Virus record (IMG/VR): IMGVR_UViG_3300042939_000511
Span: 1-64,000 of that record
Length of the DNA stretch: 64,000 nucleotides
Source of the DNA: a virus
Direction: 5' to 3' (one strand)
A program made the position numbers and the translations under genes. Of this stretch, positions 145 to 32,095 are shown piece after piece. How positions within the stretch are numbered: the first letter of the stretch is position 1; every line of letters begins with the position of its first letter. A model generated the notes under the pieces. It searched no databases, was not told the origin of the DNA, and was given only the letters and a program-made list of their open reading frames with translations.

Positions 145-993
145 TTAATTAACAGGTTTGTAAAGCATAGGTGCTTGACCGTATACAGGTAGCTTGCCAT
201 CCCAACGCTCAATCCATTGCTGTTTAAGCAACATTTCTGTAAGAGTGCGTTGTTTCAGGGCGTTAGCTTCTGCTTCTGCTTTAGCAGATGTCAAAAGTGC
301 CTGGGCGTTACCTTCAGCAGTAGCAACTTTAATTTTAGCTTGTGCTTCAGCAGATTTAACTTGGTTTTCAGCAGTAAGTGCTGCTTGAACTGCGTTGTTC
401 TTAGCTTCAATAGCTTTCTTGAAAGTTTCTGGATACACAAGGTTAGAAGTAAACTGTGCCAAAACAAATCCTTCAGGATACAACTGTGACTCTAATACTT
501 TACGCACTTTAACTTCAAACTGCTCACGATTAGAAATAAGTTCATCAGCAGTATAAGAGTTGGCTACAATACGAAAAGCGTCATACACAGCAGTTTTAAG
601 AAATCCTTCTTCAATAGCGTCAAGAGTTAAGCGATACTTACCAAAAATATAAGGCACACGATCACGTTTGACAGCGTAGTTAACTATTGGAGAAACATGA
701 AACTCTGAACCATCTTTTGAGTTAACAATAAATGACTCATCAACAGCATCTTCACCGTTGTTTTTATACTCTTTATGCTGTACAAAAGTAGGAAACTCAA
801 TAATCTTTGTGCTGAAAGGATTGTAGAAGACCCATCCTGTAACTTCAGTAGCATCATCTACGCCTTTACCATCTCCATAAAGATTTACTTTAACACCAAC
901 ATGTCCTGCGTCAATACGCTCGCAACAAGACAAAGAAAATATCATTAGTAGCGCCGCAACAGATGATAATAAAGTTATTTTAGCTTGGTTCAT
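145..993 (-). CDS. SPFH/band-7 (stomatin/prohibitin/HflC-like) domain lipoprotein
   Basis: N-terminal signal with lipobox-like LSCC, then an SPFH-type core and a C-terminal Ala/Glu/Gln-rich coiled coil (AEAQAKIKVATAEGNAQALL..). Both are typical of band-7 proteins. Confidence 0.75.
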   Translation of the reverse strand: MNQAKITLLSSVAALLMIFSLSCCERIDAGHVGVKVNLYGDGKGVDDATEVTGWVFYNPFSTKIIEFPTFVQHKEYKNNGEDAVDESFIVNSKDGSEFHVSPIVNYAVKRDRVPYIFGKYRLTLDAIEEGFLKTAVYDAFRIVANSYTADELISNREQFEVKVRKVLESQLYPEGFVLAQFTSNLVYPETFKKAIEAKNNAVQAALTAENQVKSAEAQAKIKVATAEGNAQALLTSAKAEAEANALKQRTLTEMLLKQQWIERWDGKLPVYGQAPMLYKPVN

Positions 994-1231
994 TGTTTTT
1001 TGGTTTTTTGATATTGTTAATAACCTTTTGAAATACTGTCACAATTATTGTGGACAGTGCAATGACAAGGGATAAGGCTATAATAAAACCCATGTACACT
1101 GCTATATTGCTGTCTTGATTCATCAGCCAAAACGCAAGGCGTGATAGCTCCATGATGAGTGCAAAGACAAACAAATAGACAAAAATTTTGATATAAATGT
1201 TTCTGAATTGATTCATAAGCATTGGTAACAA
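980..1231 (-). CDS. small two-TM membrane protein, possible NfeD-like partner of SPFH protein
   Basis: 83 aa with two hydrophobic helices. It lies immediately upstream of, and overlaps the start of, the SPFH gene, which is the NfeD-SPFH operon arrangement. Confidence 0.4.
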   Translation of the reverse strand: MLPMLMNQFRNIYIKIFVYLFVFALIMELSRLAFWLMNQDSNIAVYMGFIIALSLVIALSTIIVTVFQKVINNIKKPKNNEPS

Positions 1232-1272
1232 ACCCAGATGCAGAAGTTACTCTGCACCTGGTGTTCATTTTA

Positions 1273-3111
1273 TTAAAGAGTGACCCGTTCTTTGATAAGC
1301 TTGTCTACTTTGCGTGACATATAGTTGATCATGTCATTAGGTAGATTTTTGATGTCAGTCATCTTGATAAAGTAGTCAAACATTTGAGCTGAAGGCACTG
1401 ATTCTTCAATAGCAATCTGAATTACCTGAAAACCTAAAGCCTGTGCTTTTTGAACTTTAGATTTGGTGTCTTCAATAGCAGATCTGCCACTGTAGCCTAC
1501 AGCTGAAGGCTGACCATCTGAAAGTACAAACAACAAGCCCTGATTGGGTGTGTTTTTACGTACTCTTTTTGCAAAAGCAAGTATAGCATCACCGTCGCGG
1601 TTGTTGCCTCTTGCTTCAATAGATCCTAAAGAAAAGGGATCTGTGACATAACCTTTCTCACGGTAAACACGCAAATAAGTGAGATGTGTAGAAGGTGTAT
1701 CTGCAGTATGACCATACATGTACAAGTCTACATCAGGCATGTTTTTGAAAACTTCGTTGATGAATATAGCAGCTTGTCGTGCTTTGTCAATTTTACTACC
1801 TCCCATGGAGCCTGATTCATCAATCAATACGCCCACACAGATTTTATTTGTGGTGACGCGTCCCATTCTTTCATAGATAGTAGGGACGTTTTGAACAGCT
1901 TCTGCAATCTTGTTGGTATCAAGTCTACCAGAACGCATTGACTTCATTACAAAAGCCTGGTCTTTACTTTTTCTTGCAAAAAGCTTTTGAAGCACAGCAG
2001 CTTTAGTACCGTCTACTTTGTGCAACGCATTTTTGTATGCGCTGATGTTAGTGTCAGCTTTTAAGAAGACTACAGTACTGTCTTCAGCAAAACCTTCTTC
2101 ATCATAATCTTTAGAATTAGGTATATGATGCGCGCCAGGTATCATGTCCTCAGTAAAATCTTCAAACTCTTTTGTGAAACCTCCTTCTTTGTTACCTTCT
2201 TCAGCATTGATCAAAGATTTGATCATCTCTTTAGCTATCTCATCCAAGTCTGATTTACTCAGCTGTGGTTTTGATTTGCCAGAAGATGACCCACCGTCTT
2301 CTTCATCATCTCCCTCACCTTCTCCAGGTGGAGGTGGTTCTTCGTCTTCGGTATATTTGACAATGATGTTGGTTAAAGAAGTAGCCATGCTAGCACATTC
2401 TGCAGTTGTATTAGGTATGCCGCCATACTTTTTCAAAAGACGTTCAATAGCTGTTACAGGCTTTTCAAATTCTTCAAGATCACTTTCAGAAATATTAGCA
2501 GGATAGCGTAACATTTTGACAATAAGATCCATCAAACGCTTTTGAGCAGGTTCTTCTTCCCCTACAACTGGTGCATTTTCATAGCGATGGTTCTTGAACT
2601 TTTGAACAAACTTAAGATAACCTGGCAGACGATCTGCAAGTTTTTTGTCAATACGTTCTGTATTCAACACAGTAAACAAAAGATCTTTTAGACCTACGTC
2701 TTTAGAGGTGTCTCTTGCTTTCATAGTCTGATAATACTCAGAAGTAGTCTGCATTGTGGCCAGTGCAGCATTTTGAATGGAAGCACCGTAGAACGCATCC
2801 AGCAGCTCTGTGTCTTTGTCCAGGTAGTTTCCTTTCTTATCGCGCAACATGCTCAATGGAATTTGCACTGAAGGATTACGTGAATTTGCTTCTACGTTAT
2901 TGGTGTATTCAAAGTCCTTAGGAACACCAATTACCCTGAATATAGAACCAATCATCTTAGCAGCTACTTTCAGAGAGTCGTTATTGCGGACAAAGAATGA
3001 GGAGTAAGAATCTCTGCCTCTGTCCCAGCTGAAAAATCTTTTAGAGTCATCAGCAAATGTGTAGGCATCTTCTGCCCTGCGGTTAAACCAGTCTCTTGAC
3101 AGTTTACTCAT
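1273..3111 (-). CDS. von Willebrand factor A (VWA) domain protein, CobT-like
   Basis: MIDAS motif in VGVLIDESGSMGG within the C-terminal half. Acidic low-complexity tract EEPPPPGEGEGDDEEDGG, as in CobT-like proteins. Adjacent to an AAA+ ATPase. Confidence 0.75.
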   Translation of the reverse strand: MSKLSRDWFNRRAEDAYTFADDSKRFFSWDRGRDSYSSFFVRNNDSLKVAAKMIGSIFRVIGVPKDFEYTNNVEANSRNPSVQIPLSMLRDKKGNYLDKDTELLDAFYGASIQNAALATMQTTSEYYQTMKARDTSKDVGLKDLLFTVLNTERIDKKLADRLPGYLKFVQKFKNHRYENAPVVGEEEPAQKRLMDLIVKMLRYPANISESDLEEFEKPVTAIERLLKKYGGIPNTTAECASMATSLTNIIVKYTEDEEPPPPGEGEGDDEEDGGSSSGKSKPQLSKSDLDEIAKEMIKSLINAEEGNKEGGFTKEFEDFTEDMIPGAHHIPNSKDYDEEGFAEDSTVVFLKADTNISAYKNALHKVDGTKAAVLQKLFARKSKDQAFVMKSMRSGRLDTNKIAEAVQNVPTIYERMGRVTTNKICVGVLIDESGSMGGSKIDKARQAAIFINEVFKNMPDVDLYMYGHTADTPSTHLTYLRVYREKGYVTDPFSLGSIEARGNNRDGDAILAFAKRVRKNTPNQGLLFVLSDGQPSAVGYSGRSAIEDTKSKVQKAQALGFQVIQIAIEESVPSAQMFDYFIKMTDIKNLPNDMINYMSRKVDKLIKERVTL

Positions 3112-3225
3112 GGTGTTTTAGTTTTAAGTTTTGTCTGACAAATAATAAACATTTGCGACATCAGGGTGTGAGCAACACGAATGTCACTCACAACCCTTTT
3201 GTCACAAACTCGCTGATCCTACAGC

Positions 3226-4512
3226 TTAAAACGCAGAAACAATAGACAATACCTTGCTGCGCTCACTCACACCAATGCTGTCTTCAAACAGCGGCATGAT
3301 CGTGGCCAGCAATGCTTTGTCTACTTCAAAACCATCAGAGATAAGTGATGCAGCTTGCAAGGTGTGACGAACTGACACAGGAGTGGATAGTTCCTGTTCT
3401 TTGTACTGCTTGCGAATCTCATTAGAGACTCTGACAATAGCAGTAGCAGCCTTTTCGTCTACGCCGGTGCGCAGTTTTAGCACATTAATCTCATCACGTT
3501 CTGAAGGATAGCCCAGCTCTACAGGAAAGAACCTGTCAAGTAAAGCGCGGTCAATACTATGGGTGCCAGAATATTCTGAACCCAGGTTTGCAGTAGCAAA
3601 GAACACGGTGTTTTCATGCACCGCAATCCTGCGCTCACCATCTTCACATGCAATGTCTACAGGCAAGTAACGTCGCTTGTCTAAGCATGGAAATAGGATA
3701 TTATTAGCTGCAAGTGGAGAGCGGTTAAGCTCATCAAGCAGTACAATACCACCGCTCTGAATGTGAGAAACAAAAGGTGCTTGTTCAAACGAAGAGTGAC
3801 CTTCCTTGTTTAGACGGTGTACACCTAACAGAGCGCTTTGGGCGTCTTGTACAGTACCCATATCTTGGATATAAAGCTCTTTTCCCATAGCAGTTGCCAA
3901 GTGGTAAAGAATTTCTGTTTTACCGCTACCAGTAGGTCCTACAAGTAAGGTGTTTTCACCACGCAGCGCGTTGCGGCACATCAAAAACCAGATGTCTGGA
4001 TCAATGTGAAAGCCAACATCTTCTGTTTTAGGTACAGGATAATGCGCTGCAATCGTGCGACGAATGTTGGTTCCAGTAGGTGTTGTTCCTGGCTCTTCAG
4101 GCTTAGGAGCAATCTTGTCCTCCCAGACATATTCATAGCCGTATGAAGCCATCTGTTCAGCCATTTTCTTGGCGTATTCTACACCATAGTCAGCGCTGTC
4201 CAGGAAATAATCAACAGCAAAGTCACAGACTTTCTGCAAACGCTCTTTGTCAAGTGATGACAAAGGAAATAGGTTACCTTCAAAAGAAAGAGCGATGATG
4301 TTCTCTTTGCGAATATGCAAGTGATCTGCTTCAGGAAAGTCATAGCCGTCAGAAACAAAAATGGTTTCCAAAGGAAATTTGGCAAAATCAGCAATAGAAG
4401 TTGTAATCTTCAAATCTTCAATGCTGCGGGTGAGAGTTTTCTCAAATGCCTGTTTAGGCAATGTCTTGATCTGGTAGCTAGTACCTTGAATAAAGCTTTG
4501 TAGTAGGATCAT
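3226..4512 (-). CDS. AAA+ ATPase (AAA_5 / MoxR / CobS-like)
   Basis: Walker A LLVGPTGSGKTEIL and Walker B-like IVLLDELNRS. Paired with the VWA protein (a CobS/CobT- or MoxR/VWA-type pair). Confidence 0.75.
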   Translation of the reverse strand: MILLQSFIQGTSYQIKTLPKQAFEKTLTRSIEDLKITTSIADFAKFPLETIFVSDGYDFPEADHLHIRKENIIALSFEGNLFPLSSLDKERLQKVCDFAVDYFLDSADYGVEYAKKMAEQMASYGYEYVWEDKIAPKPEEPGTTPTGTNIRRTIAAHYPVPKTEDVGFHIDPDIWFLMCRNALRGENTLLVGPTGSGKTEILYHLATAMGKELYIQDMGTVQDAQSALLGVHRLNKEGHSSFEQAPFVSHIQSGGIVLLDELNRSPLAANNILFPCLDKRRYLPVDIACEDGERRIAVHENTVFFATANLGSEYSGTHSIDRALLDRFFPVELGYPSERDEINVLKLRTGVDEKAATAIVRVSNEIRKQYKEQELSTPVSVRHTLQAASLISDGFEVDKALLATIMPLFEDSIGVSERSKVLSIVSAF

Positions 4513-10975: not shown

Positions 10976-11647
10976 TTATTTCTTTTTAAATTGTTCAAAC
11001 CATCTTTCACAGTGTTCATTTTTCAAATCTAATTCTTGTACAGGACTTCCATATCCTATATTAAAACCAATTTTAAAAGCACTTTTTAATTCTTCCCCAC
11101 TATACATTCTTTCTTGCATCCATTTAGCACCTTTTAAAAATGCCTCTTCAGTATCTGATGCTTTTTCAAAGCCTAACTGACCGCGTTTAAAATATTCGTG
11201 TGCGGCTTCTTCAAGTGTTTCTTGTTTAGGTTCTTCTTTTGGAATGATTATTTTGTAATCATAAGGTTCCTCAGGCATATACCCATATTTCTCAATCTCA
11301 ACCTCCTCACAACTTGGATTCTTGACAAACCATTCTAAAAACTCATCGTCAATAGCTTGTACACCATCTTTGATTAGGTCTTGGTCTGTTGTTAGGATGA
11401 TTTTTTTGTACCAAAATTTACTATCATGTTTTTTAGAATCATATTGAACTATATAAATGTACTCAAAGTTAAAAACCCAATCTCCTTCTTTAATTTCTTC
11501 ATTAGAAGTGATGTAGATGTGTTGATAAGAATCACCCATTTCTTTCATTGGTGAATAATGCTCACTCTTAAAGTATCCACCATATTTATTTGTTGAATGG
11601 ACTAATGGCGCATAATTGTCTGTTGGCAATAGATGTATGTTTTTCAT
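10976..11647 (-). CDS. hypothetical protein, paralogue of 10291..10974
   Basis: Shared N-terminal domain with the adjacent gene. Confidence 0.5.
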   Translation of the reverse strand: MKNIHLLPTDNYAPLVHSTNKYGGYFKSEHYSPMKEMGDSYQHIYITSNEEIKEGDWVFNFEYIYIVQYDSKKHDSKFWYKKIILTTDQDLIKDGVQAIDDEFLEWFVKNPSCEEVEIEKYGYMPEEPYDYKIIIPKEEPKQETLEEAAHEYFKRGQLGFEKASDTEEAFLKGAKWMQERMYSGEELKSAFKIGFNIGYGSPVQELDLKNEHCERWFEQFKKK

Positions 11648-11648
11648 T

Positions 11649-12020
11649 TTATTTGTTTTTCACAATTTCAATTAGTTTGATTAGACAAGCAAGTTCTGCT
11701 TCTTCGTAGGTATGAAAGTATGCTGCATACTGAGTGCTAGTATGTTCACCTGATAATACCCAACAAAATGTAGATTTATTACCTAACTCCATTGTTATCC
11801 AAGAGTACAATTCATACTTCTCTCTAAACCATCTGAATGCTTGTGAGAATGTTGGTGCTAAAACAGTATGCCCCCCTCGTGCATGATGAACTTTGCAATC
11901 ACAAACTGTAAATTCTTTAGTTGCATGGTAGTAAGCTCCTAGGTAAGGTTCATCAAATCCAAGTTCTTTAAGTGCCAAGGCTTGTTCGTAGGGGACAAAT
12001 TCTTTTTCTAAAATGTTCAT
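11649..12020 (-). CDS. hypothetical protein
   Basis: 123-aa ORF, 1-nt spacing to the upstream gene. Confidence 0.5.
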   Translation of the reverse strand: MNILEKEFVPYEQALALKELGFDEPYLGAYYHATKEFTVCDCKVHHARGGHTVLAPTFSQAFRWFREKYELYSWITMELGNKSTFCWVLSGEHTSTQYAAYFHTYEEAELACLIKLIEIVKNK

Positions 12021-12091: not shown

Positions 12092-12295
12092 TCAAGGGTT
12101 CATAGTTTGAAACAATTTGTACTTATCACAACTGTCATTGATCTTTTTGACTTGTGGACCAAAACCATTGCTGCGTGAAAGCACATACTCACAAGTGCTG
12201 TCGTTTATGTTACGCACATTTACAACTTTGTAAGGGCGTTTGTTCTCACAACTTGTGATAAACAAGCTTGTCAGAAAGATGAAAAGGTTTTTCAT
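12092..12295 (-). CDS. small secreted/lipoprotein
   Basis: 67 aa. Signal peptide with lipobox-like LFITSC. Confidence 0.45.
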   Translation of the reverse strand: MKNLFIFLTSLFITSCENKRPYKVVNVRNINDSTCEYVLSRSNGFGPQVKKINDSCDKYKLFQTMNP

Positions 12296-12330
12296 GATAA
12301 GTGATGTTTTAAGTTTAAACTATACAAGTT

Positions 12331-12374
12331 TTAACAACAACAAGTGAGGTGCCTGGGTATGAGAAGCCAGACAC
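12331..12374 (-). terminator. long imperfect hairpin at the 3' (minus-sense) end of the ORF-free RNA locus
   Basis: CAAGTGAGGTGCCTGG...CCAGACACCTTGCACTTG forms nested inverted repeats. On the minus strand it is followed by TTGTTGTTAAAAC. Confidence 0.35.
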
Positions 12375-12392
12375 CTTGCACTTGCCGCGTTC

Positions 12393-12452
12393 CCTCTGCA
12401 CTCAGTTGTAACCTATGTTTGTTATATAGGAAGTCATTGCCTTTATATGGCA
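12393..12452. ncRNA. three-stem structured element R1 (outer 9-bp stem CAGTTGTAA/TTACAACTG enclosing two hairpins)
   Basis: Inverted repeats read directly. The flanking 23-mer TCCCTCTGCACTCAGTTGTAAC and TTACAACTGCTCAC both recur at 14661-14849. Confidence 0.4.
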
Positions 12453-12499
12453 TTTACAACTGCTCACCCTTGGGAGACTGACTAAGTATTATTACAGGT

Positions 12500-12546
12500 G
12501 CTCTACTCGCCACCACTATTTCAGGTTCGATACCTGCTTACAGAGC
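12500..12546 (+). ncRNA. tRNA-like minihelix (GCTCT...AGAGC stem + T-arm mimic CAGG-TTCGATA-CCTG)
   Basis: A T-loop-like TTCGATA hairpin on the plus strand, closed by a 5-bp stem. No D or anticodon arms. Confidence 0.25.
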
Positions 12547-12732
12547 TTAATCAGTGTGGTTTCACATCTTATGATTGGGGCATCCTGGTACTAAAACCTT
12601 TACTACCCACTTTTTATGCAGCACGCTTTACAGCGTCATAAGAAGTCTTTATATCCACGTGAGTTGTGGTGCATTAAACGCGTGTCTTTCCACGCTGTCA
12701 CCACGTTTGTTGTCTTAGTGTGGTTAACTTAG

Positions 12733-12867
12733 TAGTCAGGACAGGATTCGAACCTGTGGTGCAAGTTATTAGGTGAAGTAATACTCTTCATTCATCAGAC
12801 TGAGCTGAACCTCTCATTACCTTGCCGACTTGTAGTAGTTGCGTCTAACCAATTCCGCCACCTGACT
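12733..12867 (-). ncRNA. split tRNA-like element, copy 1 (135 nt)
   Basis: On the minus strand a 5' AGTCAGG-TG-GCGG-AATTGGTTAG-ACGC segment (acceptor plus D-arm-like) is paired with 3' ACAGG-TTCGAAT-CCTGT-CCTGACT-A (canonical T-arm plus complementary acceptor). The roughly 100-nt body between them has no recognisable anticodon arm. Confidence 0.4.
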
Positions 12868-13081
12868 ATGTGCCTCACCCTGAGATTTGGGGTGAGTAGA
12901 TGTTTACAGTTTTTTGCTTTCAAAAAACCCAAAGTGTCTTACCACTTAAAAAAGTCAACACTACTGGGAGGAGTTGTGTCGCTCTCCTTTGTTCCCATGA
13001 TGTCCCACTCGCGCCGTAGACATTCTGCGGGTTCATTGTTTAAGTCTTGAACCAAAGACTCTGAGTATCTCTTACTCATTG

Positions 13082-13281
13082 CAGTCAGGATAGGATTTGA
13101 ACCTATATGCCATTTGTGGTTTTCTCTTACTACTGTTGCAACAGTACCACCAGCGTTTTGCAAATTCTGCATGTTGTCCGCTTACGTCTAACATACAATA
13201 TCAACCTTGCGGGTCAATCTTCGCGTCTACCATATCCAGCACATACTATTACTCTTTGTGCTTTCATTCCGCCACCTGACT
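13082..13281 (-). ncRNA. split tRNA-like element, copy 2 (200 nt)
   Basis: Same 5' AGTCAGGTGGCGGAAT and 3' ATAGG-TTCAAAT-CCTAT-CCTGACT-G ends as copy 1, around a longer diverged body. Both copies share TAGACGC and GCAAGGT blocks. Confidence 0.35.
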
Positions 13282-13519
13282 ATGTTTAGGGTGAGAAACC
13301 CTTTGTGTTGTGCACGGGAAAATTCTAATGCAATTCATCTCACTCCTTTCTCAAGGGAACAACACAATGTCTAAAAACAACTACAGTGCTACGTTTCAAG
13401 TGGCTTGTTAAGCCTTCGTAGGTACAATAAGGTGATCAACCCTCGTAAATACCCTTCATGCACTGCAGTTGTTTTAGACAAAAGCATACTTTAACCAGTA
13501 TGCCAGTGGTAGGTCAAAC

Positions 13520-13885
13520 CTAAACTAGGTTTTTGGTTACCTCTGCTCTTTCAGCAGGAGTAAGTCTTGTGAACAGCGTTCTGACAAATGAGACAAGCTG
13601 AATGTTGTGGTCACGCATGTTTGTTTCTGTTTGTTTTACACTAGCACGATCTGTTGCAGTTCTTTTCTGCACGCTACCGGCAGTGACACTTGTGGGCTTC
13701 AGATTTGTGTAGTAGCGAATGGCAATAGCTTGTGGACTGCGGTTTGTAAGAAATGCTGCTTTAGCAAATGCTTGGTACAATGTTTTGTGCTTTTTGCGTT
13801 TGCCTACAATGGACATTACAAGCGTTTCTTGTTCTGGTGTCCAGAAGCGAGGGTGCATTAATTTTGAGCTGGTAGGATTTTTCAC
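13520..13885 (-). CDS. Myb/SANT-like DNA-binding domain protein
   Basis: RFWTPEQETLVMSIV..KTLYQAFAKAAFLTNRSPQAIAIRYY fits the W-x-EE..L...W/F..IA...R..QC..R SANT pattern. Confidence 0.4.
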   Translation of the reverse strand: MKNPTSSKLMHPRFWTPEQETLVMSIVGKRKKHKTLYQAFAKAAFLTNRSPQAIAIRYYTNLKPTSVTAGSVQKRTATDRASVKQTETNMRDHNIQLVSFVRTLFTRLTPAERAEVTKNLV

Positions 13886-14404: not shown

Positions 14405-14660
14405 GTTAATTACAAGGTTTTAGTTGTCAAAATGATACAAGTAGAAATTTAGAGTACCAACGCCAGACACACCAACGCCGCTCGTTGGTCTGCTTTTATC
14501 GTTTGATTGTAGTTTACACAGACAAGATGACGGTAATATCATCCTTGTTAACAGGTCTGCATAAACCAGAGGAGAGGGGCGGAACTATTTTTCTCACAGC
14601 TCTGCCTGGCGCGGGTGACTCTAATGCTTCTACAGGGAGAGAGAAGATAAGAAGATATCT

Positions 14661-14849
14661 CCCTCTACACTCAGTTGTAACAAGTGGCACCCATTTGCAG
14701 GTAGGTGTTCTCCAATGGTTTCCTATTACAGCATACGTTCTGTAATATTCCCTGCTTGTTCTTGTTACAACTGGTTGTAATAGTTTTAGTCCTGTTTACA
14801 ATAACTACTAAGATGGGACTCTACAATACCCACATTACAACTGCTCACT
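14661..14849. repeat. structured repeat R2, an expanded version of R1
   Basis: TCCCTCTACACTCAGTTGTAAC (14661-14682), its 10-bp partner GTTACAACTG (14765-14774), and TTACAACTGCTCAC (14836-14849). These are 22/23 identical to the R1 ends at 12381-12457. Confidence 0.4.
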
Positions 14850-15090
14850 GATGTCAGTTAGTGCATGAGAAAGACTCTTTATGGCAAAAACTGATAGGTT
14901 ATAGCCATTTAGTGTCAAAATTTGTGCGTTCTGAGAAGTTTTTGAGGTGATCAAGAGGATGAGGAGGGGTGTGCTACCACTCACATAACTCCTTGCTCAT
15001 CAATAACTTACTGAACACTTACGTGTCAAAAAAGCAACTGAGAAAGCGCTGTGTAAATACAGCAACTTTCTCAGAAACTTGTTCAAGTGC

Positions 15091-17404: not shown

Positions 17405-18052
17405 TTAGTTGTACTCAAAGTCAAGGATCTTTCCTACCAGGTCAGAGCGGTGGTTCTCTTTAAGCTTGATCCACTTGATTTCAGGGATCTTCTTGCTCAG
17501 TTCTATGGCATAGGACAATCCGTTGTAATCGTCTCTGATGTCTTTTTGCTCATTGTCACCATTGACAATGATCTTGCCTGTTTTGCCCAGGCGTGTCAGA
17601 ATGGCCAGCATCTGCGCCTTGCTCAGGTTCTGTGCTTCTTCTACTACTAAGACATCATCAATAGTCTTTCCTCTAATGAACTGCACAGGATAGGCCACGA
17701 TCTGTTTGCTTTTGACCATCTCCTGAATCTTGGCTTTTTCATAGCACTTTTCCAAGTTCTCTACAAAAGCCTCCAAGTAAGGGTTAAACTTTTCATCTAG
17801 TGATCCTGGTAACAAGCCCATGGTGGCACCCACCTCAATGGTAGCGCGCGTCACATAGATATTATCGCATTCTTTTTTGAATAAGAAGTCTAGGGCTGTT
17901 TGTGCAGAGACTAATGACTTGCCTGAACCTGCGCGCCCTGTGACAATCACTATCTGGTTTTCTCTTATTAAACGCTTGGCATCTCTTTGCTCTTCGTTAA
18001 GCTCTACTAAATACTTGATTTCTGTCTTGCGTGATCTATTGGCGTCTCTCAT
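17405..18052 (-). CDS. phoH: PhoH-like ATPase
   Basis: IVIVTGRAGSGKSLVSAQTAL (Walker A), VTRATIEVGATMGLLPGSLDEKFNPYL, VVEEAQNLS, ILTRLGKTGKIIVNGDNEQKD and ENHRSDLV all match conserved PhoH blocks. Confidence 0.85.
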   Translation of the reverse strand: MRDANRSRKTEIKYLVELNEEQRDAKRLIRENQIVIVTGRAGSGKSLVSAQTALDFLFKKECDNIYVTRATIEVGATMGLLPGSLDEKFNPYLEAFVENLEKCYEKAKIQEMVKSKQIVAYPVQFIRGKTIDDVLVVEEAQNLSKAQMLAILTRLGKTGKIIVNGDNEQKDIRDDYNGLSYAIELSKKIPEIKWIKLKENHRSDLVGKILDFEYN

Positions 18053-20475: not shown

Positions 20476-20548
20476 GCCACTTTAGCTCAGCTGGTAGAGC
20501 GACTGATTTGTAATCAGTAGGTCGTGGGTTCAATTCCTACAAGTGGCT
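20476..20548 (+). tRNA. tRNA-Thr (anticodon UGU)
   Basis: Full cloverleaf folded by hand: acceptor GCCACTT/AAGTGGC, D-arm GCTC-AGCTGGTA-GAGC, anticodon stem ACTGA/TCAGT with loop TTTGTAA, variable loop AGGTC, T-arm GTGGG-TTCAATT-CCTAC. No encoded CCA. Confidence 0.85.
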
Positions 20549-23870: not shown

Positions 23871-24086
23871 ATGACCGCAGAAATTCTTTACGACTGGGTG
23901 TTTCACTACAACCACTTTGCCAACCAATGGGCAGCCTACCACCGCGATGACCACAAGGCTTACTTCAATGCAGAAACTTCAGTGCATCCCATCTTCAAAC
24001 ACAAGGACATAAAAGTTCTTGTAAAGCACCTTGTCAAAAGCAATGGTGACCCTGCGCTGCTTATGAGTTTTTCCCCTAAAAAATAA
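23871..24086 (+). CDS. hypothetical protein
   Basis: 71 aa. The stop overlaps the TerL start. Confidence 0.4.
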   Translation: MTAEILYDWVFHYNHFANQWAAYHRDDHKAYFNAETSVHPIFKHKDIKVLVKHLVKSNGDPALLMSFSPKK

Positions 24087-26284
24087 TGTACATCAAGGTT
24101 CCCACATACACTGCTGCTACAGACACATGGTCGCACACTGAGTTTGCGTCCAGGGATGCGTTTGTGGAGTTTTTGTGGAGTATGTTCAAAGAACCAGGTC
24201 AGTACAACTTTGACCAGACCTGTGAGATGTTCAATGAGCAGGCTAGGCTTTTCAACAAGTATAAAGTTTACTGTACAGCGCCCAGTCGCAGCAAAGACTT
24301 TGTTTACTACTGGGACACCCAGAAAGAACGCTGCCGCAACGGGGTGATCATACATGGTCCTAAGAACACCTGGTATCTGACCAGAGATTACTACATGTGG
24401 CTGAACTTTCTGCCTATCTACAACAAAGAGGTGGGCAAGTTTACCTTTGCTGACGTGCGTGATGCGCAGTACCACATGGCCCTTTATGAAGACATTGCCA
24501 AGCATAGCTACAAACATTGCGCGATTCTAAAGAAGCGACAGATTGCCTCTTCTTACTACCACGCTGCCAAGATTATCAATCTGTACTGGTTTGAAGAAGG
24601 TGCTGTCAACAAAATGGCTGGTTCTCTAAAAGACTACATCAACGAGAAAGGCACCTGGAGGTTTTTGGAAGAGTACCGCAACTTCTTGAACAGCCACACT
24701 GGCTGGTATCGTCCCTCTAACCCTGACAAAGTACTCAACTGGGAACAGAAAATTGAGGTGAACCAAGGTGGCAAGAAGCGTGACGTGGGCTTAAAGTCTG
24801 TTGTCTTTGGTCTTGCCCTGGAGAAAGACCCTACCAATGGTGTCGGTGGTCCCTGTACTTTTTTCTTTCATGAGGAAGCAGGTATTGCCCCACGCATGAA
24901 TGAGACCATAGAGTACCTGCTACCTGCCATGAAATCAGGCATGATCTACACAGGGATGTTTGTGGCTGCAGGTTCTGTGGGTGACCTGGAGCAGTGTGAA
25001 CCACTGAAGGAACTGATCTTAAACCCAGACTCTAAAGACGTACTGGCGGTAGAGACCAACCTGGTTAATGAAGCCGGTGAGATCGCCAAGTGTGGGTTGT
25101 TTATCCCTGAGCAGTGGAGTATGCAGCCCTGCATTGATGAGTATGGAAACTCCCAGGTAGAAAAAGCCCTGGAGATGATTCTTGCAGAAAGACTTGAGTG
25201 GAAAAAGAAACTTAAGCCTGATGACTATCAGCTCAGGATCTCTCAGAAACCTATTAATATTGAAGAAGCGTTTGCTTACCGCAAAGTCTCCAAGTTTCCG
25301 CTAGCACTGGTCAGTCGCCAGGTACGCAGGATTGAGGATGGCGAATATCATAGGGAATTTGTAGAACTGTACAGAGATGATGCTGGCAAGGTTACAGCAC
25401 GTGACTCACGCAAGCTGCCTATCTCAGAGTTTCCAGTATCTCCTAAAACCCAGGACAAAGAAGGTGTGGTGGTCTTGTATGAGCGTCCTGTAAAGGATCC
25501 TCAGTTTGGTATGTACTACGCGTCTATTGACCCTGTCAGCGAAGGAAAGACTACGACTTCTGAGTCGCTCTGCTCCATATTTGTCTACAAGACCGCGCAG
25601 GAGATTACTAAGCACAAGATGGACGGCTCTATTGAGCAGCACATTGAGCGCGACGGCATTGTAGCGTCATGGTGCGGCAGGTTTGATGACCTTACCAAGA
25701 CCCATGAGCGCCTGGAAATGCTTATTGAATACTACAACGCATGGACCATTGTGGAAAACAACGTTAGCTTGTTTATCCAGTACATGATCTCCAGGCGTAA
25801 ACAACGCTATCTGGTTCCTAAAAATCAGATCCTATTTTTAAAAGAACTGCAAAGCAACACCAACGTCTTCCAGGAGTATGGCTGGCGCAACGTAGGAACA
25901 ATCTTTAAAACCAACCTGATCTCCTACGCAATCCAGTTCCTGGAAGAGCAGTTGGATGTGGAGACCAAGCCCAATGGAGAGATTGTCAAGACAACCTATG
26001 GTATTGAGCGCATCCCTGACATTATGCTGCTAAAAGAGATGGCAGCGTATCGCGATGGACTAAACGTGGACAGACTGGTGGCTTTCTGTGCGCTGGTGGC
26101 TTTTGCAAAGGTACAGGAATCTAACAGAGGATACTCTAAGCGTGTAGAACGTGAGGATTCTAATTTGGATAACTCTAAAAAACATGCTAAATTAAGAGTG
26201 ACCCCTTTCCGTCATATGGGAAACGTTCACAACTCCTCTACTATGGTTAAGGTTCCCAGAAGCCCTTTTAAAAACATGAGGTGA
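24086..26284 (+). CDS. terL: terminase large subunit (TerL)
   Basis: C-terminal RNaseH-like nuclease motif I VVVLYERP..YYASIDPVSEGKTTTSESLCSIFVY. N-terminal ATPase region with a T4-gp17-like but deviant Walker A (ILKKRQIASS) and Walker B (CTFFFHEEAG). Position is directly upstream of the portal/scaffold/capsid genes. Confidence 0.7.
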   Translation: MYIKVPTYTAATDTWSHTEFASRDAFVEFLWSMFKEPGQYNFDQTCEMFNEQARLFNKYKVYCTAPSRSKDFVYYWDTQKERCRNGVIIHGPKNTWYLTRDYYMWLNFLPIYNKEVGKFTFADVRDAQYHMALYEDIAKHSYKHCAILKKRQIASSYYHAAKIINLYWFEEGAVNKMAGSLKDYINEKGTWRFLEEYRNFLNSHTGWYRPSNPDKVLNWEQKIEVNQGGKKRDVGLKSVVFGLALEKDPTNGVGGPCTFFFHEEAGIAPRMNETIEYLLPAMKSGMIYTGMFVAAGSVGDLEQCEPLKELILNPDSKDVLAVETNLVNEAGEIAKCGLFIPEQWSMQPCIDEYGNSQVEKALEMILAERLEWKKKLKPDDYQLRISQKPINIEEAFAYRKVSKFPLALVSRQVRRIEDGEYHREFVELYRDDAGKVTARDSRKLPISEFPVSPKTQDKEGVVVLYERPVKDPQFGMYYASIDPVSEGKTTTSESLCSIFVYKTAQEITKHKMDGSIEQHIERDGIVASWCGRFDDLTKTHERLEMLIEYYNAWTIVENNVSLFIQYMISRRKQRYLVPKNQILFLKELQSNTNVFQEYGWRNVGTIFKTNLISYAIQFLEEQLDVETKPNGEIVKTTYGIERIPDIMLLKEMAAYRDGLNVDRLVAFCALVAFAKVQESNRGYSKRVEREDSNLDNSKKHAKLRVTPFRHMGNVHNSSTMVKVPRSPFKNMR

Positions 26285-26304: not shown

Positions 26305-29034
26305 ATGCCTAAAGTATACAACGCACTACAGCTCAAGAATGGAGCTAAGGTAGACCATAACAGAATGGGCACCTTGACCCAACCTGTGCAGTTTTTGAAC
26401 AGAAAAGACAAAGACGAAGCATGGGGCGCGTGGAACATGGACTGGTTGGAAATGCAAGGTCTTAAGCAGATTCGCAGAAACGCCCGCAGGTTGTTAAAAA
26501 ACTACAAGCTGGCTAATGGTATCATTGACAAGACAGACTACATTGTAGAAGAAGACAATGAAGTAGCAGATTTGATTGACGTGTTGACCAAACAAGATGA
26601 GTCAGCTTTTGAACTAAAGTTTTTTCCCATTATTCCCAACGTTATCAACGTAATGTGTGGGGAGTTTGCTAAGCGCAATGACAAGATTACCTATAGAGCA
26701 GTAGATGATCTGTCTTATAATGAAATGATGGAAGCTAAGCGAATGATGGTGGAGGAAGTTCTGGTGCGCCAGGCGGAGGTCAAGATGCAACAGACCATTG
26801 AGGCTATGGGTCTGAACATGGAAGATGAAGAGCAGGCTGCTCAGGCACAGCAAATGATGTCGCCAGAAAGCCTCAAGTCTCTGCCAGAAATTGAGGAGTT
26901 CTTCAAGAAAGATTACCGTTCCATGGTAGAAGAATGGGCTACACACCAACATGAGGTGGACGAAGAGCGTTTTACCATGAAAGAATTAGAGAACCTCGCT
27001 TTTAAAGACATGCTCATTGCTGATCGCGAGTTCTGGCATTTCAAGATGAATGAAGATGATTACGAGGTAGAGCTTTGGAACCCAGTGCTTACTTTTTACC
27101 ATAAGTCTCCTGAGGCTAGGTACATATCACAGTCAAACTGGGTAGGCCGTGTAGATTTAATGACTATTGCTGATGTCATTGACAAGTATGGTTACATGAT
27201 GACAGACGAGGAGCTTGCCTCTTTAGAGGCGATCTACCCAGTGCATTCAGCAGGTTACCTTATCCCAGGACTGCAAAATGATGGTTCTTTTTATGATGCT
27301 ACGCGTTCTCATGAGTGGAATACACAAGGTCCATCTTTAGGAATGCGGCAGTTTTTAAGTGCGCGTGATGCATTTATGAACACTGGCGATGATATCATCA
27401 TGAAAATTGTAAATGAGTCTGAAAGTGTTCAAGATTTTCAAGACATCAGTCTTCTGAGAGTTACGACTTGCTACTGGAAAAGCCAGCGTATGGTGGGTCA
27501 TCTTTCTAAAGTAGACGAGAATGGTGAGCTTACTGATATGATTGTTAATGAGAACTACAAGATTACCACTAAACCCCTGTATGACACTTCAGTACTTAAG
27601 AAAAAAAGTCGTGAGAACCTTGTTTTTGGTGAACATATTGATTGGATATGGATCAATGAAGTTTGGGGAGGTGTTAAGGTTGGTCCCAACAGACCTGCAT
27701 TCTTTGGCAATAATGACACTTTTGGATTTCAGCCACTGTATCTAAACGTAAAACCCTTGCGCTTTCAGTTTAAGGGTGACTTTACATTGTATGGCTGCAA
27801 GCTGCCGGTGGAAGGTGCTGTGTTTACAGAACGCAACACCAAGTCTATGTCATTGGTAGATAAGATGAAACCCTACCAGATTGGATACAACCTGGTTAAT
27901 AACCAGATTGCTGACATTCTGATTGACGAGCTTGGCACAGTAATTATGCTGGATCAGAACGCTCTGCCACGTCACTCCATGGGAGAGGATTGGGGCAAAA
28001 ACAACTACGCTAAGGCGTATGTGGCCATGAAGAACTTTCAGATGTTGCCGCTAGACACATCTATCACCAACACAGAAAACGCACTGAACTTTCAGCACTA
28101 CCAGGTTCTTAACCTTGAGCAGACGCAGCGCCTTATGTCAAGGGTACAACTGGCCAGCTACTTTAAGAACCAGTGCTTTGAGTCTATAGGTATTTCACAG
28201 CAGCGTCTGGGTGCAGTAAACGCACAGGAAACTGCCCAGGGTATTGAGCAGGCTATCAACATGAGTTACTCACAGACAGAGGTGTATTTTACGCAGCACT
28301 CTGAATACCTGATGCCGCGCGTACATCAGATGCGCACAGATCTTTCACAGTACTATCACTCTAATCGTCCTTCACTGCGTTTGCAGTATGTGACATCTAT
28401 GGATGAAAAGGTAAACTTTCAGATGAATGGCACAGAATTACTGGCCCGCGAGCTGAATATCTTTATCTCTACCAAGGTCAACCAGCGCCAGGTTATCGAA
28501 CAGATCAGAAGTCTTGCCATCAACAACAACACTTCTGGCGCTTCTATCTATGATTTGGGTAACATTGTCAAGGCTGACTCCATGGCTGAGATTACTCATG
28601 TCATGAAAGGTATTGAAGAGAAAACTACCAGGGCCAAGATGCAGGAAACAGAAGCCTTGCAGCAAACAGAACAGATGCGTCAACAAGCTGAAACAGAGCG
28701 TCTTGAAGCTAAGTTACGTTTTGAAGCTGAGCAAAACGCCCTGGATCGTGAGACTCAAGAGCGCGTTGCAGAAATCAGAGCTGCAGGTTACACTGCCATG
28801 AACGATCGCGACATGAACCAGCAGAACGACTACATTGACACTTTGGAATATCTTGACAAGAAAAACGCAAAAGAAACTGATCAGGCCATTGCCAGAGATC
28901 GCGAGTTAAATCGCACTGTTACAGAACAGAAAAAACTAGAGCTTAAGCGTCAAGAATTACTCTCTAAAGAGCGCATTGCTGAGAAAGAATTGCAAGTTGC
29001 GCGTACTAATAAAAACAAATATGACAAAAAGTAA
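26305..29034 (+). CDS. portal protein (candidate)
   Basis: 909 aa, placed between TerL and the scaffold/MCP genes, with a C-terminal coiled coil. The call is by synteny only. Confidence 0.5.
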   Translation: MPKVYNALQLKNGAKVDHNRMGTLTQPVQFLNRKDKDEAWGAWNMDWLEMQGLKQIRRNARRLLKNYKLANGIIDKTDYIVEEDNEVADLIDVLTKQDESAFELKFFPIIPNVINVMCGEFAKRNDKITYRAVDDLSYNEMMEAKRMMVEEVLVRQAEVKMQQTIEAMGLNMEDEEQAAQAQQMMSPESLKSLPEIEEFFKKDYRSMVEEWATHQHEVDEERFTMKELENLAFKDMLIADREFWHFKMNEDDYEVELWNPVLTFYHKSPEARYISQSNWVGRVDLMTIADVIDKYGYMMTDEELASLEAIYPVHSAGYLIPGLQNDGSFYDATRSHEWNTQGPSLGMRQFLSARDAFMNTGDDIIMKIVNESESVQDFQDISLLRVTTCYWKSQRMVGHLSKVDENGELTDMIVNENYKITTKPLYDTSVLKKKSRENLVFGEHIDWIWINEVWGGVKVGPNRPAFFGNNDTFGFQPLYLNVKPLRFQFKGDFTLYGCKLPVEGAVFTERNTKSMSLVDKMKPYQIGYNLVNNQIADILIDELGTVIMLDQNALPRHSMGEDWGKNNYAKAYVAMKNFQMLPLDTSITNTENALNFQHYQVLNLEQTQRLMSRVQLASYFKNQCFESIGISQQRLGAVNAQETAQGIEQAINMSYSQTEVYFTQHSEYLMPRVHQMRTDLSQYYHSNRPSLRLQYVTSMDEKVNFQMNGTELLARELNIFISTKVNQRQVIEQIRSLAINNNTSGASIYDLGNIVKADSMAEITHVMKGIEEKTTRAKMQETEALQQTEQMRQQAETERLEAKLRFEAEQNALDRETQERVAEIRAAGYTAMNDRDMNQQNDYIDTLEYLDKKNAKETDQAIARDRELNRTVTEQKKLELKRQELLSKERIAEKELQVARTNKNKYDKK

Positions 29035-30451: not shown

Positions 30452-32095
30452 ATGAGCACACCAGTTTTAAACAACGGTCTCTTCCTGCGCGACACTAACT
30501 ACAAGGTTAGTTCGCACGTGGACAGCTACCACTTGGTGAACATGCTAAAGAGCGCAGAACCCATGGACTTGGGTCCTGTTGATCTTTGGGCTATGACCCA
30601 AAAGGTAGAAATGCCTCTTTACCAGATGGCATCTTTCGGTGGCAAGAACACCATCACTGTAGACAACCCTCGTGGTGAATACAAGTGGCAAACCCCAATT
30701 GTTCAGGACCTTCCCTACATTGTAGAGGACGTAGAGCCTAGCTTAACATCTCTTGGTCAAGATGGTACAACCTTCAAGATCAAATTGAATAAGCGCAGCT
30801 TTGGTCATGGTGACATCATCACCTATGACAAGTACAAAGGTGCTGAACTTTACATTACAGCTGAGGACATTCTTCCTTCTGGCGATGGCTTCGTATACAC
30901 TGTTCAGTTGGTGAACAACGACAATCAGAAGACTTTGAGCAAAGTGTACCTTAAGCCTGGCACCAAATTCTTCCGCAAAGGTTCTGCCCGCGGGGAGTAT
31001 GGTGAGCGTTTCTCTGACATCGGAGAACTGAGTGCTGGCTTCCGCGAGTTCTACAACTTTGTAGGTGGTGCAGAAGCTCACGTTCACTACTCTGTTTCTA
31101 GCCGTGCAGAGCTTATGATGAAAGGTGGCATGAACGCTGATGGTACTGTACCTGTTACAGAGATCTGGCGCTCATTTGACGCCAACATTGCCAAAGATCC
31201 TTCTTTGACCAACATTGACGCCATGGTGTCTAAGATGGGCAAAGAATACATCAAAAAGGCTTACGACTCTGGAACTTTGACTCGTTCTTTTGTCACCAAG
31301 ATGGAGGCTGCTCACTTGACCAAGATTGCTAATGACATTGAAACCTACCTCATGTGGGGACAAGGTGGACGCATTAAGCAAGATGGTCCAGACGACATTC
31401 GCCTGTCTGTAGGTTTGTGGAGCCAGCTTGACAACTCTTTCAAGCGTATCTACAACAAGAGCTCTTTCAACCTTGAGTTGTTCCGCTCTGAGATCTTCAA
31501 CTTCTACAATGGTAAAGTTGAGTTCAAAGGCCCAGATCCTCAGCGTCAGATCATTGTTCAAACTGGTATGGCCGGTATGAAGATGGTCAATGAAGCTATC
31601 AAGAAAGAAGCCTTCAACACTGTAGGTGCTGGTCTGGTTGCCAACATTGACAAGTCTGGTTTGAACGCTATCAGCGGTAGCAACGCCATGGACCTGAACT
31701 TTGGTTTTGCTTTCACCAGCTATACTATTCCTTTCTTGGCAAACGTAAAGTTCGTGTTGAACCCAGCGTTTGACAACGTACATACCAACGACATTGAGAA
31801 CCCCATCATTGATGGCTTCCCATTGTCTTCTTACAACTTCATCGTGTTTGACATCACTGACAACACCAACGACAACATCTTCTTGCTGAAGTTGAAGTGG
31901 GACAGTGAGCTCAAATGGTTCTATCAAAACGGTACCATGGATTACATGGGTCGTACTCAAGGGTTCGCTTCTTCTGGAAACTTTAATGGATACCGCGTAT
32001 TCATGACCCAGACTATGCCTTCCATCTGGGTGAAAGACCCTACTAAGGTTCTTAAGATTGTGATGAGGAACCCCATCACTGGCGGCTCGTTCTAA
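30452..32095 (+). CDS. major capsid protein (candidate)
   Basis: 547 aa. Strongly biased, highly-expressed-type codon usage. Follows the scaffold and is followed by a GC hairpin. Confidence 0.55.
   Translation: MSTPVLNNGLFLRDTNYKVSSHVDSYHLVNMLKSAEPMDLGPVDLWAMTQKVEMPLYQMASFGGKNTITVDNPRGEYKWQTPIVQDLPYIVEDVEPSLTSLGQDGTTFKIKLNKRSFGHGDIITYDKYKGAELYITAEDILPSGDGFVYTVQLVNNDNQKTLSKVYLKPGTKFFRKGSARGEYGERFSDIGELSAGFREFYNFVGGAEAHVHYSVSSRAELMMKGGMNADGTVPVTEIWRSFDANIAKDPSLTNIDAMVSKMGKEYIKKAYDSGTLTRSFVTKMEAAHLTKIANDIETYLMWGQGGRIKQDGPDDIRLSVGLWSQLDNSFKRIYNKSSFNLELFRSEIFNFYNGKVEFKGPDPQRQIIVQTGMAGMKMVNEAIKKEAFNTVGAGLVANIDKSGLNAISGSNAMDLNFGFAFTSYTIPFLANVKFVLNPAFDNVHTNDIENPIIDGFPLSSYNFIVFDITDNTNDNIFLLKLKWDSELKWFYQNGTMDYMGRTQGFASSGNFNGYRVFMTQTMPSIWVKDPTKVLKIVMRNPITGGSF

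Follow-up and report, generated by a model that had tools for sequence, protein, structure and literature searches.

Anticodon-less tRNA-Leu-like frames with variable inserts in a structured RNA locus of a crAss-like phage

In a 64,000-nucleotide (nt) stretch of viral DNA (positions 1 to 64,000 of IMG/VR record IMGVR_UViG_3300042939_000511, hereafter the window), the interval 12296-13519 encodes at least five structured RNAs on the minus strand, as one compact operon in the leftward, accessory arm of a crAss-like phage. We are highly confident that this non-coding RNA (ncRNA) locus is built around transfer RNA (tRNA)-like chimeras that lack an anticodon, here called elements A and B. An initial annotation, made from the letters alone, had noticed T-arm-type motifs in this interval and had proposed a dedicated locus for one or several structured ncRNAs. 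This proposal is supported by our analysis, in which the RNA elements are better conserved than the flanking genes and their stems show compensatory changes. What the initial annotation missed is that the T-arm motifs sit in complete tRNA-Leu-like frames without an anticodon arm, and that these frames are part of a large phage family.

Two tRNA-Leu-like frames without an anticodon arm

Elements A and B (coordinates in Table 1) share 20 of 20 nt at their 5' ends (ACAUAGUCAGGUGGCGGAAU) and 22 nt at their 3' ends. Each has a 7-base-pair (bp) acceptor stem (AGUCAGG/CCUGACU), a D arm, and a T arm with the G53-C61 pair and a UUCRANU loop, and in each the flanks are of tRNA type (U-1, A73, C74). These are the features by which enzymes of tRNA processing and handling recognise their substrates. 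The T stem is compensated between the two units, reading ACAGG/CCUGU in A and AUAGG/CCUAU in B. The T arms are two of the motifs pointed out in the initial annotation, GGATTCGAACC (12744-12754) and GGATTTGAACC (13093-13103), and both are genuine minus-strand T arms. Measured against the frame motif of the family described below, A matches at 16 of 16 positions on the 5' side and 24 of 24 on the 3' side, and B at 16 of 16 and, with compensation, 21 of 24. The canonical tRNA features present are the 7-bp acceptor stem, the 5-bp T stem, the UUCRANU loop and a D arm with G18G19. Where the anticodon arm would be, A forms a mini-hairpin of 3 bp with a 6-nt loop, and a Y-shaped domain occupies its variable-arm position; B forms a 7-bp stem ending in a GCAA-type loop, after which come two more helical domains. 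A fuzzy-motif scan of the window found only these two copies of the frame.

The consensus segment AGGUGGCGGAAUUGGUAGACGC is identical, over 22 of 22 nt, to tRNA-Leu genes in all 5426 complete Escherichia coli genomes, and the sole difference in A is an additional U in the D loop (UUGGUUAGACGC). Because the D-arm region is identical to that of E. coli tRNA-Leu over this length, we take the frame to be derived from a class II tRNA-Leu.

Standard tools recognise little of this. The Rfam tRNA model (RF00005) aligns with A from end to end at 35.5 bits (gathering threshold 29), with one insertion of 53 nt at the anticodon arm and another of 21 nt at the variable region, a score obtained with permissive filters on a 3-kb slice only; at the gathering threshold A is absent from the whole-window scan, and B was never reported. 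ARAGORN in its default mode called neither A nor B, its only tRNA in the window being a tRNA-Thr at 20476. A hammerhead suspected in A (CUGAUGA) was unsupported by Rfam and was set aside.

A family of tRNA frames in phages

We define the tRNA-frame family by a 5' half AGUCAGGUGGCGGAAU...(G)GUAGACGC, a payload, and a 3' half ACAGGUUCGAAUCCUGUCCUGACU followed by A-C, a definition that both A and B fit. The 16-mer AGTCAGGTGGCGGAAT occurs in at least 120 IMG/VR contigs, and in almost all of them the 3' half ACAGGTTCGAATCCTGTCCTGACT, which had not been selected for, is found 63-199 nt downstream, the lengths being continuous with a median of 109 nt. A fuzzy scan of the collected viral loci gave 225 frame copies, up to eight per locus and often within or beside canonical phage tRNA arrays.

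The frame covaries as a tRNA would. Across 73 distinct versions of the acceptor and T stems, 97.8% of cells are paired, and nine of the 12 pairs show double (compensatory) changes, a result equalled by none of 500 shuffles; the D stem covaries as well (e.g. GCG/CGC, GUG/CAC and GCU/AGC). In the T arm, G53, U55 and C61 are invariant, and U54, C56, A58 and U60 are conserved at 90% or more. U-1 is present in 80% of members, A73 in 85% and C74 in 96%. CCA is not encoded, and the canonical tRNAs from frame-bearing loci likewise end in a base plus C. The compensatory changes show selection at the level of RNA.

At the same time, the family has neither an anticodon arm nor decoding capacity. A canonical anticodon stem-loop at the canonical place (a 5-bp stem and a 7-nt loop with U33 and R37, right after position 26) was found in none of 189 members, A and B included, with 0.1 expected from shuffled payloads. 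The anticodons that ARAGORN calls in shorter members are scattered and odd, and the canonical tRNA-Leu genes of the same arrays have different, ordinary sequences.

These results bear on the possibility that A and B are true tRNA-Leu genes interrupted by introns or insertions, which would be spliced out to give a decoding tRNA. Group I introns are known in bacterial tRNA-Leu and offer a precedent, and ARAGORN can be forced by its intron options to make calls here; these calls are implausible (Phe-gaa with a 43-nt intron for A; Arg-cct), and we rejected them as artefacts. Besides the lack, in all 189 members, of an exon-like anticodon stem or loop flanking the insert, the supposed anticodon of A is not kept in its own homologue, and group I introns need more than the 30-150 nt that payloads offer. 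Rfam searches (permissive, E <= 10, at the locus; at gathering thresholds on the window; and on 35 related loci) returned no group I intron, nor any match to payloads or locus other than the generic tRNA model. We regard interrupted tRNA genes as very improbable.

One array, in L010 (IMGVR_UViG_3300035681_000025, 285-3472, minus strand), holds eight frame elements in 3.5 kb, among them A-class and B-class payloads together with M, the RNA that separates B from A in the window, all interleaved with canonical tRNA genes; similar arrays of seven elements are present in L245, L246 and L263. A few short members have near-real anticodon loops (L049 5644-5733; L055, minus strand, 70 nt), reading UUCAAUU with CAA and CUUUUAA with UUU. 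The frame may have started as a decoding tRNA, or may still sometimes serve as one.

To judge from where its sequence turns up, the family is widespread and restricted to phages. BLAST of the locus against 50,697 isolate phage records from GenBank gave no match, and a synthetic frame query against isolate phages matched ordinary tRNA halves only, with T4 rnaC and rnaD not among the matches listed. We also scanned one genome per species from 185,579 prokaryotic species (596 Gb) for the 16-mer AGTCAGGTGGCGGAAT, where by our own estimate about 280 matches are expected by chance. Among the 123 matches examined, 116 were without the 3' half and seven had it. Six of these seven real matches lie on contigs of 5.8-33 kb from metagenome-assembled genomes, and the seventh on a long contig beside terminase genes. 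Given this outcome, we conclude that the frame is not a copy or mimic of a resident host tRNA. A literature search that included literal frame sequences found no description of the family; it left subscription journals mostly uncovered, so an earlier description is possible. Taken as a whole, the hypervariable cassette system has a substantial chance of being new.

Diverse, structured payloads

Grouping the payloads of the 225 elements gave about 160 clusters, of which 132 are singletons. As a set, payloads have slightly lower folding z-scores than random windows taken from these loci (median z of -0.62 versus -0.17, p = 1.6e-4). The class B payload is represented by nine distinct variants in nine contigs, with compensatory changes in six of its 30 predicted pairs and with long invariant single-stranded blocks (e.g. 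GACGUAAGCGGAC, GCAAAACGCUGGUGG and AAGAGAAAACCAC). For the class A payload, a divergent variant in L010 and L246 shows six compensated pairs. The structural covariation that the initial annotation had proposed to look for is therefore found in the frame stems, in payloads and, as described below, in M.

The octamer GCTGGTGG at 13147-13154 (minus strand), within the B payload, is the E. coli Chi sequence and is invariant in nine of nine B-class variants; this is probably a coincidence, because in the RNA model its GUGG pairs with CCAC.

Conservation of elements and turnover of payloads

The closest relative that we found is IMGVR_UViG_3300016471_000437 (loci L121/L122). Between the window and L121, element B is 95.6% identical, whereas the flanking coding DNA is 87-90% identical. 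Element A has a copy with 100% identity over 138 nt in L251, where the adjoining gene for a 123-amino-acid (aa) protein is 79% identical in DNA and 71% in protein; it is 99.3% identical in L248/L250, though no detectable protein is shared there with any open reading frame (ORF) of the window, and 95.7% identical in the 219-kb contig L245. Nucleotide-level conservation, which was to be set against protein-level conservation according to the initial annotation, is thus the higher of the two, reaching 99-100% for A where proteins are unrelated or about 71% identical.

These data leave little to the idea that the locus is decayed protein-coding sequence. The missing ORF speaks for it, and nothing more: the longest ORF in 12296-13519 has 77 aa (12939-13172) and overlaps element B, so the stretch is free of longer ORFs, as had been stated. 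However, the homologous stretch of about 1.4 kb in L121 also has no ORF longer than 68 aa, conservation is RNA-like and above that of the flanking genes, and tblastn matches of the spurious ORFs merely mirror the nucleotide identity of the RNA elements. A pseudogene, against which the initial annotation had already decided, can be practically dismissed.

Identity among the A copies breaks off no more than a few bases from the element borders and gives way to unrelated flanks. Array content differs even in close relatives: the window has B followed by A, L121 has an element X followed by B, and the breakpoints lie inside the shared frame. Payloads are thus turned over like cassettes, and the simplest cause would be recombination through the constant frame ends.

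Perhaps, then, the elements are selfish or neutral cassettes, with frames that act mainly as DNA homology arms or recombination hot spots and inserts that hitch-hike without RNA function for the phage. Element-sized horizontal spread with sharp borders and varying array content would agree with this, as would a frame sequence kept far beyond structural need. Compensatory changes, both in the frame's T, acceptor and D stems and within payloads, nevertheless show RNA-level selection, the tRNA-type flanks are conserved, and no recombinase or other protein is linked to the elements, all of which makes pure recombination cassettes improbable.

Other RNAs of the locus

Table 1. Positions of the RNA features in the window; minus-strand features are given in their 5' to 3' direction.
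Feature	Position	Length	Strand	Description
S leader RNA	13480-13368		-	Stem of ~24 bp closing a small multi-branch loop; starts 40 nt past the stop codon of the 121-aa gene
Two hairpins between S and B	13367-13288		-	Second hairpin (AGGGUUUCUCACCCU) ends 6 nt before the 5' end of B; z = -1.7
Element B	13281-13083	199 nt	-	tRNA-Leu-like frame without anticodon arm
B, 5' acceptor and D-stem strand	13281-13266		-	
B, D-loop hairpin insert	13265-13232	34 nt	-	
B, rest of D arm	13231-13223		-	
B, payload	13222-13107	116 nt	-	
B, T arm and 3' acceptor strand	13106-13083		-	
M element	13082-12868	215 nt	-	Structured RNA filling the whole B-A interval
Element A	12867-12734	134 nt	-	tRNA-Leu-like frame without anticodon arm
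A, payload	12840-12758	83 nt	-	
Trailer after A	12733-12639		-	94% identical in L121, L392 and L393
Palindrome CAGGTTCGATACCTG	12522-12536		+	No acceptor or D-arm context; no ARAGORN or Rfam match
R3	12476-12391		-	R-frame unit
R3, 5' arm	12474-12454		-	CCCAAGGGUGAGCAGUUGUAA
R3, insert	12453-12412	42 nt	-	Two hairpins
R3, 3' arm	12411-12391		-	UUACAACUGAGUGCAGAGGGA
Terminator-like hairpin	12386-12339		-	3' end of the locus; tail UUGUUGUU, not a clean U run
R1	14848-14774		-	Tandem R-type unit in the 686-nt ORF-free gap 14405-15090
R2	14773-14660		-	Tandem R-type unit in the same gap

M has homologues that adjoin tRNA-like units in L073, L245, L263, L010 and L246, at 71-84% identity, and RNAalifold predicts 48 pairs for it, seven of them with compensatory changes. 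Its borders are those of its neighbours: it starts one base past the 3' end of B and runs up to the 5' end of A.

The S leader has a minimum free energy (MFE) of -45.5 kcal/mol (z = -6.5, with none of 200 shuffles as good). It is kept in L121, L316, L392 and L393, and every time the first tRNA-like unit lies about 190-200 nt further downstream; one A-U to G-C compensatory change can be seen by eye across the relatives. Because the stem is so long and stands right behind the upstream stop codon, S may be an RNase III-type processing site or an insulating site. The pair of hairpins between S and B is 89% identical in L121 and L316.

Within the trailer, a 38-nt motif (TTAATGCACCAYAACTCACGTRGATATAAAGACTTCTTA; 12677-12639, minus strand) recurs in 11 further viral contigs, and in the four contigs compared it stands about 200-300 nt upstream of an R element, a member of the second frame family described below. 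From its hexamer spacing alone (TTAATG, 17 nt, ATATAA), the motif is a candidate promoter, or else it may be a processing signal. A sigma-70 scan of the locus gave no enrichment. In a few contigs the first half of the motif runs straight into the R 5' arm.

At the 3' end of the locus, the terminator-like hairpin that had been placed at 12331-12374 is real, with slightly different best borders (Table 1); it folds at -24.9 kcal/mol (z = -3.6, with none of 200 shuffles as good) and is 95-97% identical in L121 and L393. The third T-arm motif of the initial annotation, the plus-strand palindrome CAGGTTCGATACCTG, did not hold up, having tRNA context on neither strand. The surrounding stretch 12480-12630 is poorly conserved, being matched by at most one compared locus (at 12490-12530), and the palindrome is best read as a plain hairpin or chance match outside any tRNA-like unit.

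A second frame family

R3 corresponds to the three-stem structure reported at 12393-12452, which likewise proved real, with two hairpins enclosed by a 9-bp stem (CAGUUGUAA/UUACAACUG). R3 is a member of a second family, the R frame, defined by a 5' arm CCCAAGGGUGAGCAGUUGUAA, an insert of 22-154 nt and a 3' arm UUACAACUGAGUGCAGAGGGA, and R3 matches both arms exactly. The 3' arm is present in at least 119 viral contigs and the 5' arm in most of those; the 108 unique inserts, of 22-154 nt, form 95 clusters. A tRNA-frame element is also present in 17 of the 119 R loci, and no modules common to tRNA-frame payloads and R inserts were found. Clustering of neighbouring ORFs linked no protein family to the R frame in more than 29 of the 119 loci.

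The tandem units R1 and R2, upstream of the locus, have a common closing stem (CAGUUGUAA/UUACAAC(UG)), and R2 (14772-14668) is 99% identical in L251 despite differing surrounding DNA. S, M, R and the terminator-like hairpin are not in Rfam, and we found no description of them in the literature. In L311, a hammerhead-like core (CUGAUGAG...CGAAAC) lies about 10 nt downstream of an R element (R 3' arm at 2711-2731); Rfam at its gathering threshold reported no hammerhead at this core.

Proposed processing and function

We propose that the locus is an operon of processed tRNA-framed RNAs that carry exchangeable payload effectors, and we give this explanation, taken as a whole, slightly better than an even chance. 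The locus would be transcribed with the leftward genes or from internal promoters, and the long S hairpin would separate it from the upstream messenger RNA. RNase P would cut the frame 5' ends at U-1/A+1, and the tRNA 3'-end pathway would trim the 3' ends and add CCA, as for the phage's own tRNAs, yielding stable, accumulating, L-shaped RNAs. That A and B are processed like tRNAs in this manner seems to us rather likely. The frames would also act as punctuation: since M is bounded exactly by B and A, tRNA-type processing of both neighbours would free the 215-nt M RNA as well.

On this proposal the frame is a chassis for biogenesis and stability and the payload is the working, exchangeable part, which would bind a host or phage macromolecule by its shape, for host takeover or counter-defence; identical frame ends would allow payloads to be swapped between phages by recombination. 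We favour action by shape because payloads are structured and diverse, have no antisense targets and no fixed protein neighbour, and spread horizontally in the way of accessory genes. As an account of what payloads do, a shape-based effector is plausible, if at somewhat less than an even chance. More tentatively still, phages could possess arrays of RNA cassettes that are exchanged horizontally and sit on a few constant frames (the tRNA-Leu chassis, matured by tRNA enzymes, and the R frame), each cassette being an aptamer-like effector against a different host target, for example an immune protein.

Several points weigh against this proposal. Transcription, RNase P cleavage and CCA addition are steps that we infer, and no Bacteroidota-type promoter was found in the locus. 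Within the 64-kb window, payloads had no antisense match beyond that of shuffles, and all-versus-all clustering of neighbouring ORFs linked no protein family to more than 13 of 120 tRNA-frame loci. Folded alone, A has an MFE z of -0.45, which is not significant; its structure is supported by homology and covariation rather than by fold energy. Moreover, the sequence of the acceptor stem and T arm is near-invariant, more so than structure or RNase P would require, which hints at a specific partner or at homogenisation driven by recombination.

On another reading, the frame would stay Leu-like as a substrate for aminoacylation by the host leucyl-tRNA synthetase (LeuRS), an enzyme that does not depend on the anticodon. 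The charged RNA might then act on the ribosome, like the tRNA-like domain of transfer-messenger RNA (tmRNA), or on aminoacyl-tRNA-dependent enzymes, or it might tie up LeuRS or EF-Tu. The main identity elements for E. coli LeuRS are A73 and the D-loop/T-loop architecture, with the anticodon and the long variable arm dispensable. A D arm identical to that of bacterial tRNA-Leu and a discriminator A in 85% of elements would suit such charging, for which tmRNA and plant-virus tRNA-like structures are precedents. Still, several members combine the same acceptor and T arm with D arms that are not Leu-like (e.g. GGUGUAAUGGUAACAC and UAGCUCAGUUGGUUAGAGC), the elements have no tag ORF and no tmRNA call by ARAGORN, and a function of the acceptor end would leave the hypervariable payloads unexplained. 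The likeness to tRNA-Leu may be mere ancestry, and we consider chargeable mimics unlikely.

About equally unlikely, in our estimate, is that the elements are decoys for tRNA-directed immunity, abundant anticodon-less tRNA bodies that absorb nucleases or toxins attacking the acceptor end or the elbow, with the payload secondary. The elements are phage-restricted, multi-copy, and placed in accessory regions and tRNA arrays, as decoys might be, and one report describes immune nucleases that cleave tRNA tails (PMC12851939). However, payload classes covary and are under purifying selection, which a pure acceptor-end decoy would not need, and the known anticodon nucleases could not be decoyed by these elements, because they have no anticodon loop.

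If A, B and their relatives are expressed and processed as we propose, they make up a class of phage small RNAs that is large and has so far gone unannotated, and would be a natural precedent in bacterial viruses for tRNA-scaffolded RNA expression and for tRNA punctuation. Standard tools miss such elements or mislabel them as odd tRNAs (ARAGORN with scattered anticodons, Rfam with its generic tRNA model only), so that they probably contaminate the 'tRNA counts' of phages and the host predictions made from tRNAs in metagenomes. Arms-race cargo is expected to show such a pattern: a chassis that hardly varies, structured payloads that are unrelated and number in the hundreds, arrays, and horizontal transfer in element-sized units. 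Were the cassette-effector reading true, the arrays would be to RNA what anti-defence islands are to proteins, and nature would have its own version of the engineered tRNA scaffold. The elements would open a directly testable question, namely which host molecules are bound by phage RNAs rather than by phage proteins.

Comparison with known RNAs

The A and B chimeras are tRNA-derived or tRNA-mimicking ncRNAs, and the nearest classical analogues of the frame elements are the species 1 and 2 stable RNAs of phage T4 (rnaC and rnaD; 139 and 119 nt). These too are small stable phage RNAs in a tRNA gene cluster, annotated without a function. As we fold it, rnaC combines a canonical T arm (CCGGG-UUCGAAU-CCCGG) with a closing stem that resembles an acceptor, and long arms take the place of the anticodon arm. 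On the other hand, the T4 RNAs have no sequence similarity to the frame, rnaC is without a recognisable Leu-type D arm, the folds share only the T arm and closing stem, and no family is known in which they would share a constant frame with hundreds of payloads, nor are there arrays. The T4 RNAs and the frame elements work alike, but the comparison does not make the T4 RNAs members of the family.

With class II tRNA-Leu, the frame elements share the 22-nt identical D arm, the 7-bp acceptor stem, the 5-bp T stem, the T loop, A73 and the capacity for a long extra arm. They differ in having no anticodon stem-loop, in a 'variable arm' that is an independent structure of 30-150 nt and, in B, in the insertion in the D loop.

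Other systems each share one design principle with the frame elements and each depart from them in a defining feature. The tRNA-like domain of tmRNA and those viral tRNA-like structures that can be aminoacylated likewise mimic the acceptor and T arm on a large non-tRNA body, with a synthetase identity that is independent of the anticodon. But tmRNA has no true D stem, Ala identity, a tag ORF, pseudoknots and one conserved body, whereas the frame elements have a complete D arm, are Leu-like, contain no ORF and have hypervariable bodies. ARAGORN -m called no tmRNA, and Rfam gave no tmRNA match in the window. YrlA, the bacterial Y-RNA-like RNA, has a tRNA-like module (T arm, D arm and acceptor-like stem) fused to a second functional module, and some YrlA RNAs are phage-encoded. 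Its topology is permuted, with the ends in the Ro-binding stem, and it has one conserved partner module and a link to Rsr; the ends of the frame elements lie in the acceptor stem, and Rfam gave no YrlA match.

Ponchon and Dardel reportedly engineered a tRNA scaffold for recombinant RNA in which the RNA of interest replaces the anticodon arm, so that the chimera is matured by tRNA enzymes and remains stable in bacterial cells. The frame elements follow this design principle, but where that scaffold is a laboratory construct, they would be a natural counterpart that carries the payload largely at the variable-arm position. In mitochondrial tRNA punctuation, and in the tRNA-miRNA units of the gammaherpesvirus MHV68, tRNA-shaped units direct the RNase P and RNase Z cuts that free neighbouring RNAs. 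This is the logic proposed here for M, although those systems are eukaryotic or organellar and in them the tRNA-like unit only flanks its cargo.

Genomic context

The window belongs to the genome of a crAss-like phage, with a large terminase subunit (24086-26284), a portal protein (26305-29034) and a major capsid protein of the Crass_capsid family (30452-32095). Dense packing of the leftward genes, which the initial annotation had described for 1-20 kb, is correct apart from a second large gap besides 12296-13519, at 14405-15090, where R1 and R2 lie. The RNA locus is flanked on the minus strand by a 67-aa ORF (12092-12295) and a 121-aa ORF (13520-13885). Pfam and PHROGs searches of the flanking genes found no RNA-processing enzymes in the leftward arm; the flanking proteins are small, accessory and devoid of informative domains.

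On its downstream side, the RNA locus is directly followed by the 67-aa ORF, whose opening residues MKNLFIFLTSLFITSC look by eye like a signal peptide of the lipoprotein type. The relative carries this ORF at 97% identity (L122), and homologues are present in three further loci that bear the elements. Two further minus-strand proteins adjoining the locus, of 123 aa (11649-12020) and 223 aa (10976-11647), have homologues, often tandemly duplicated, in 10-12 of 120 tRNA-frame loci, a recurrence that probably reflects shared ancestry of accessory regions and not a functional link. Other accessory genes of the leftward arm are a minus-strand pair at 1273-4512, encoding a CobT/VWA-like protein and a CbbQ/NorQ-type AAA+ (MoxR-like) ATPase, as well as a PhoH-like gene (17405-18052) and an SPFH/Band 7 gene (145-993).

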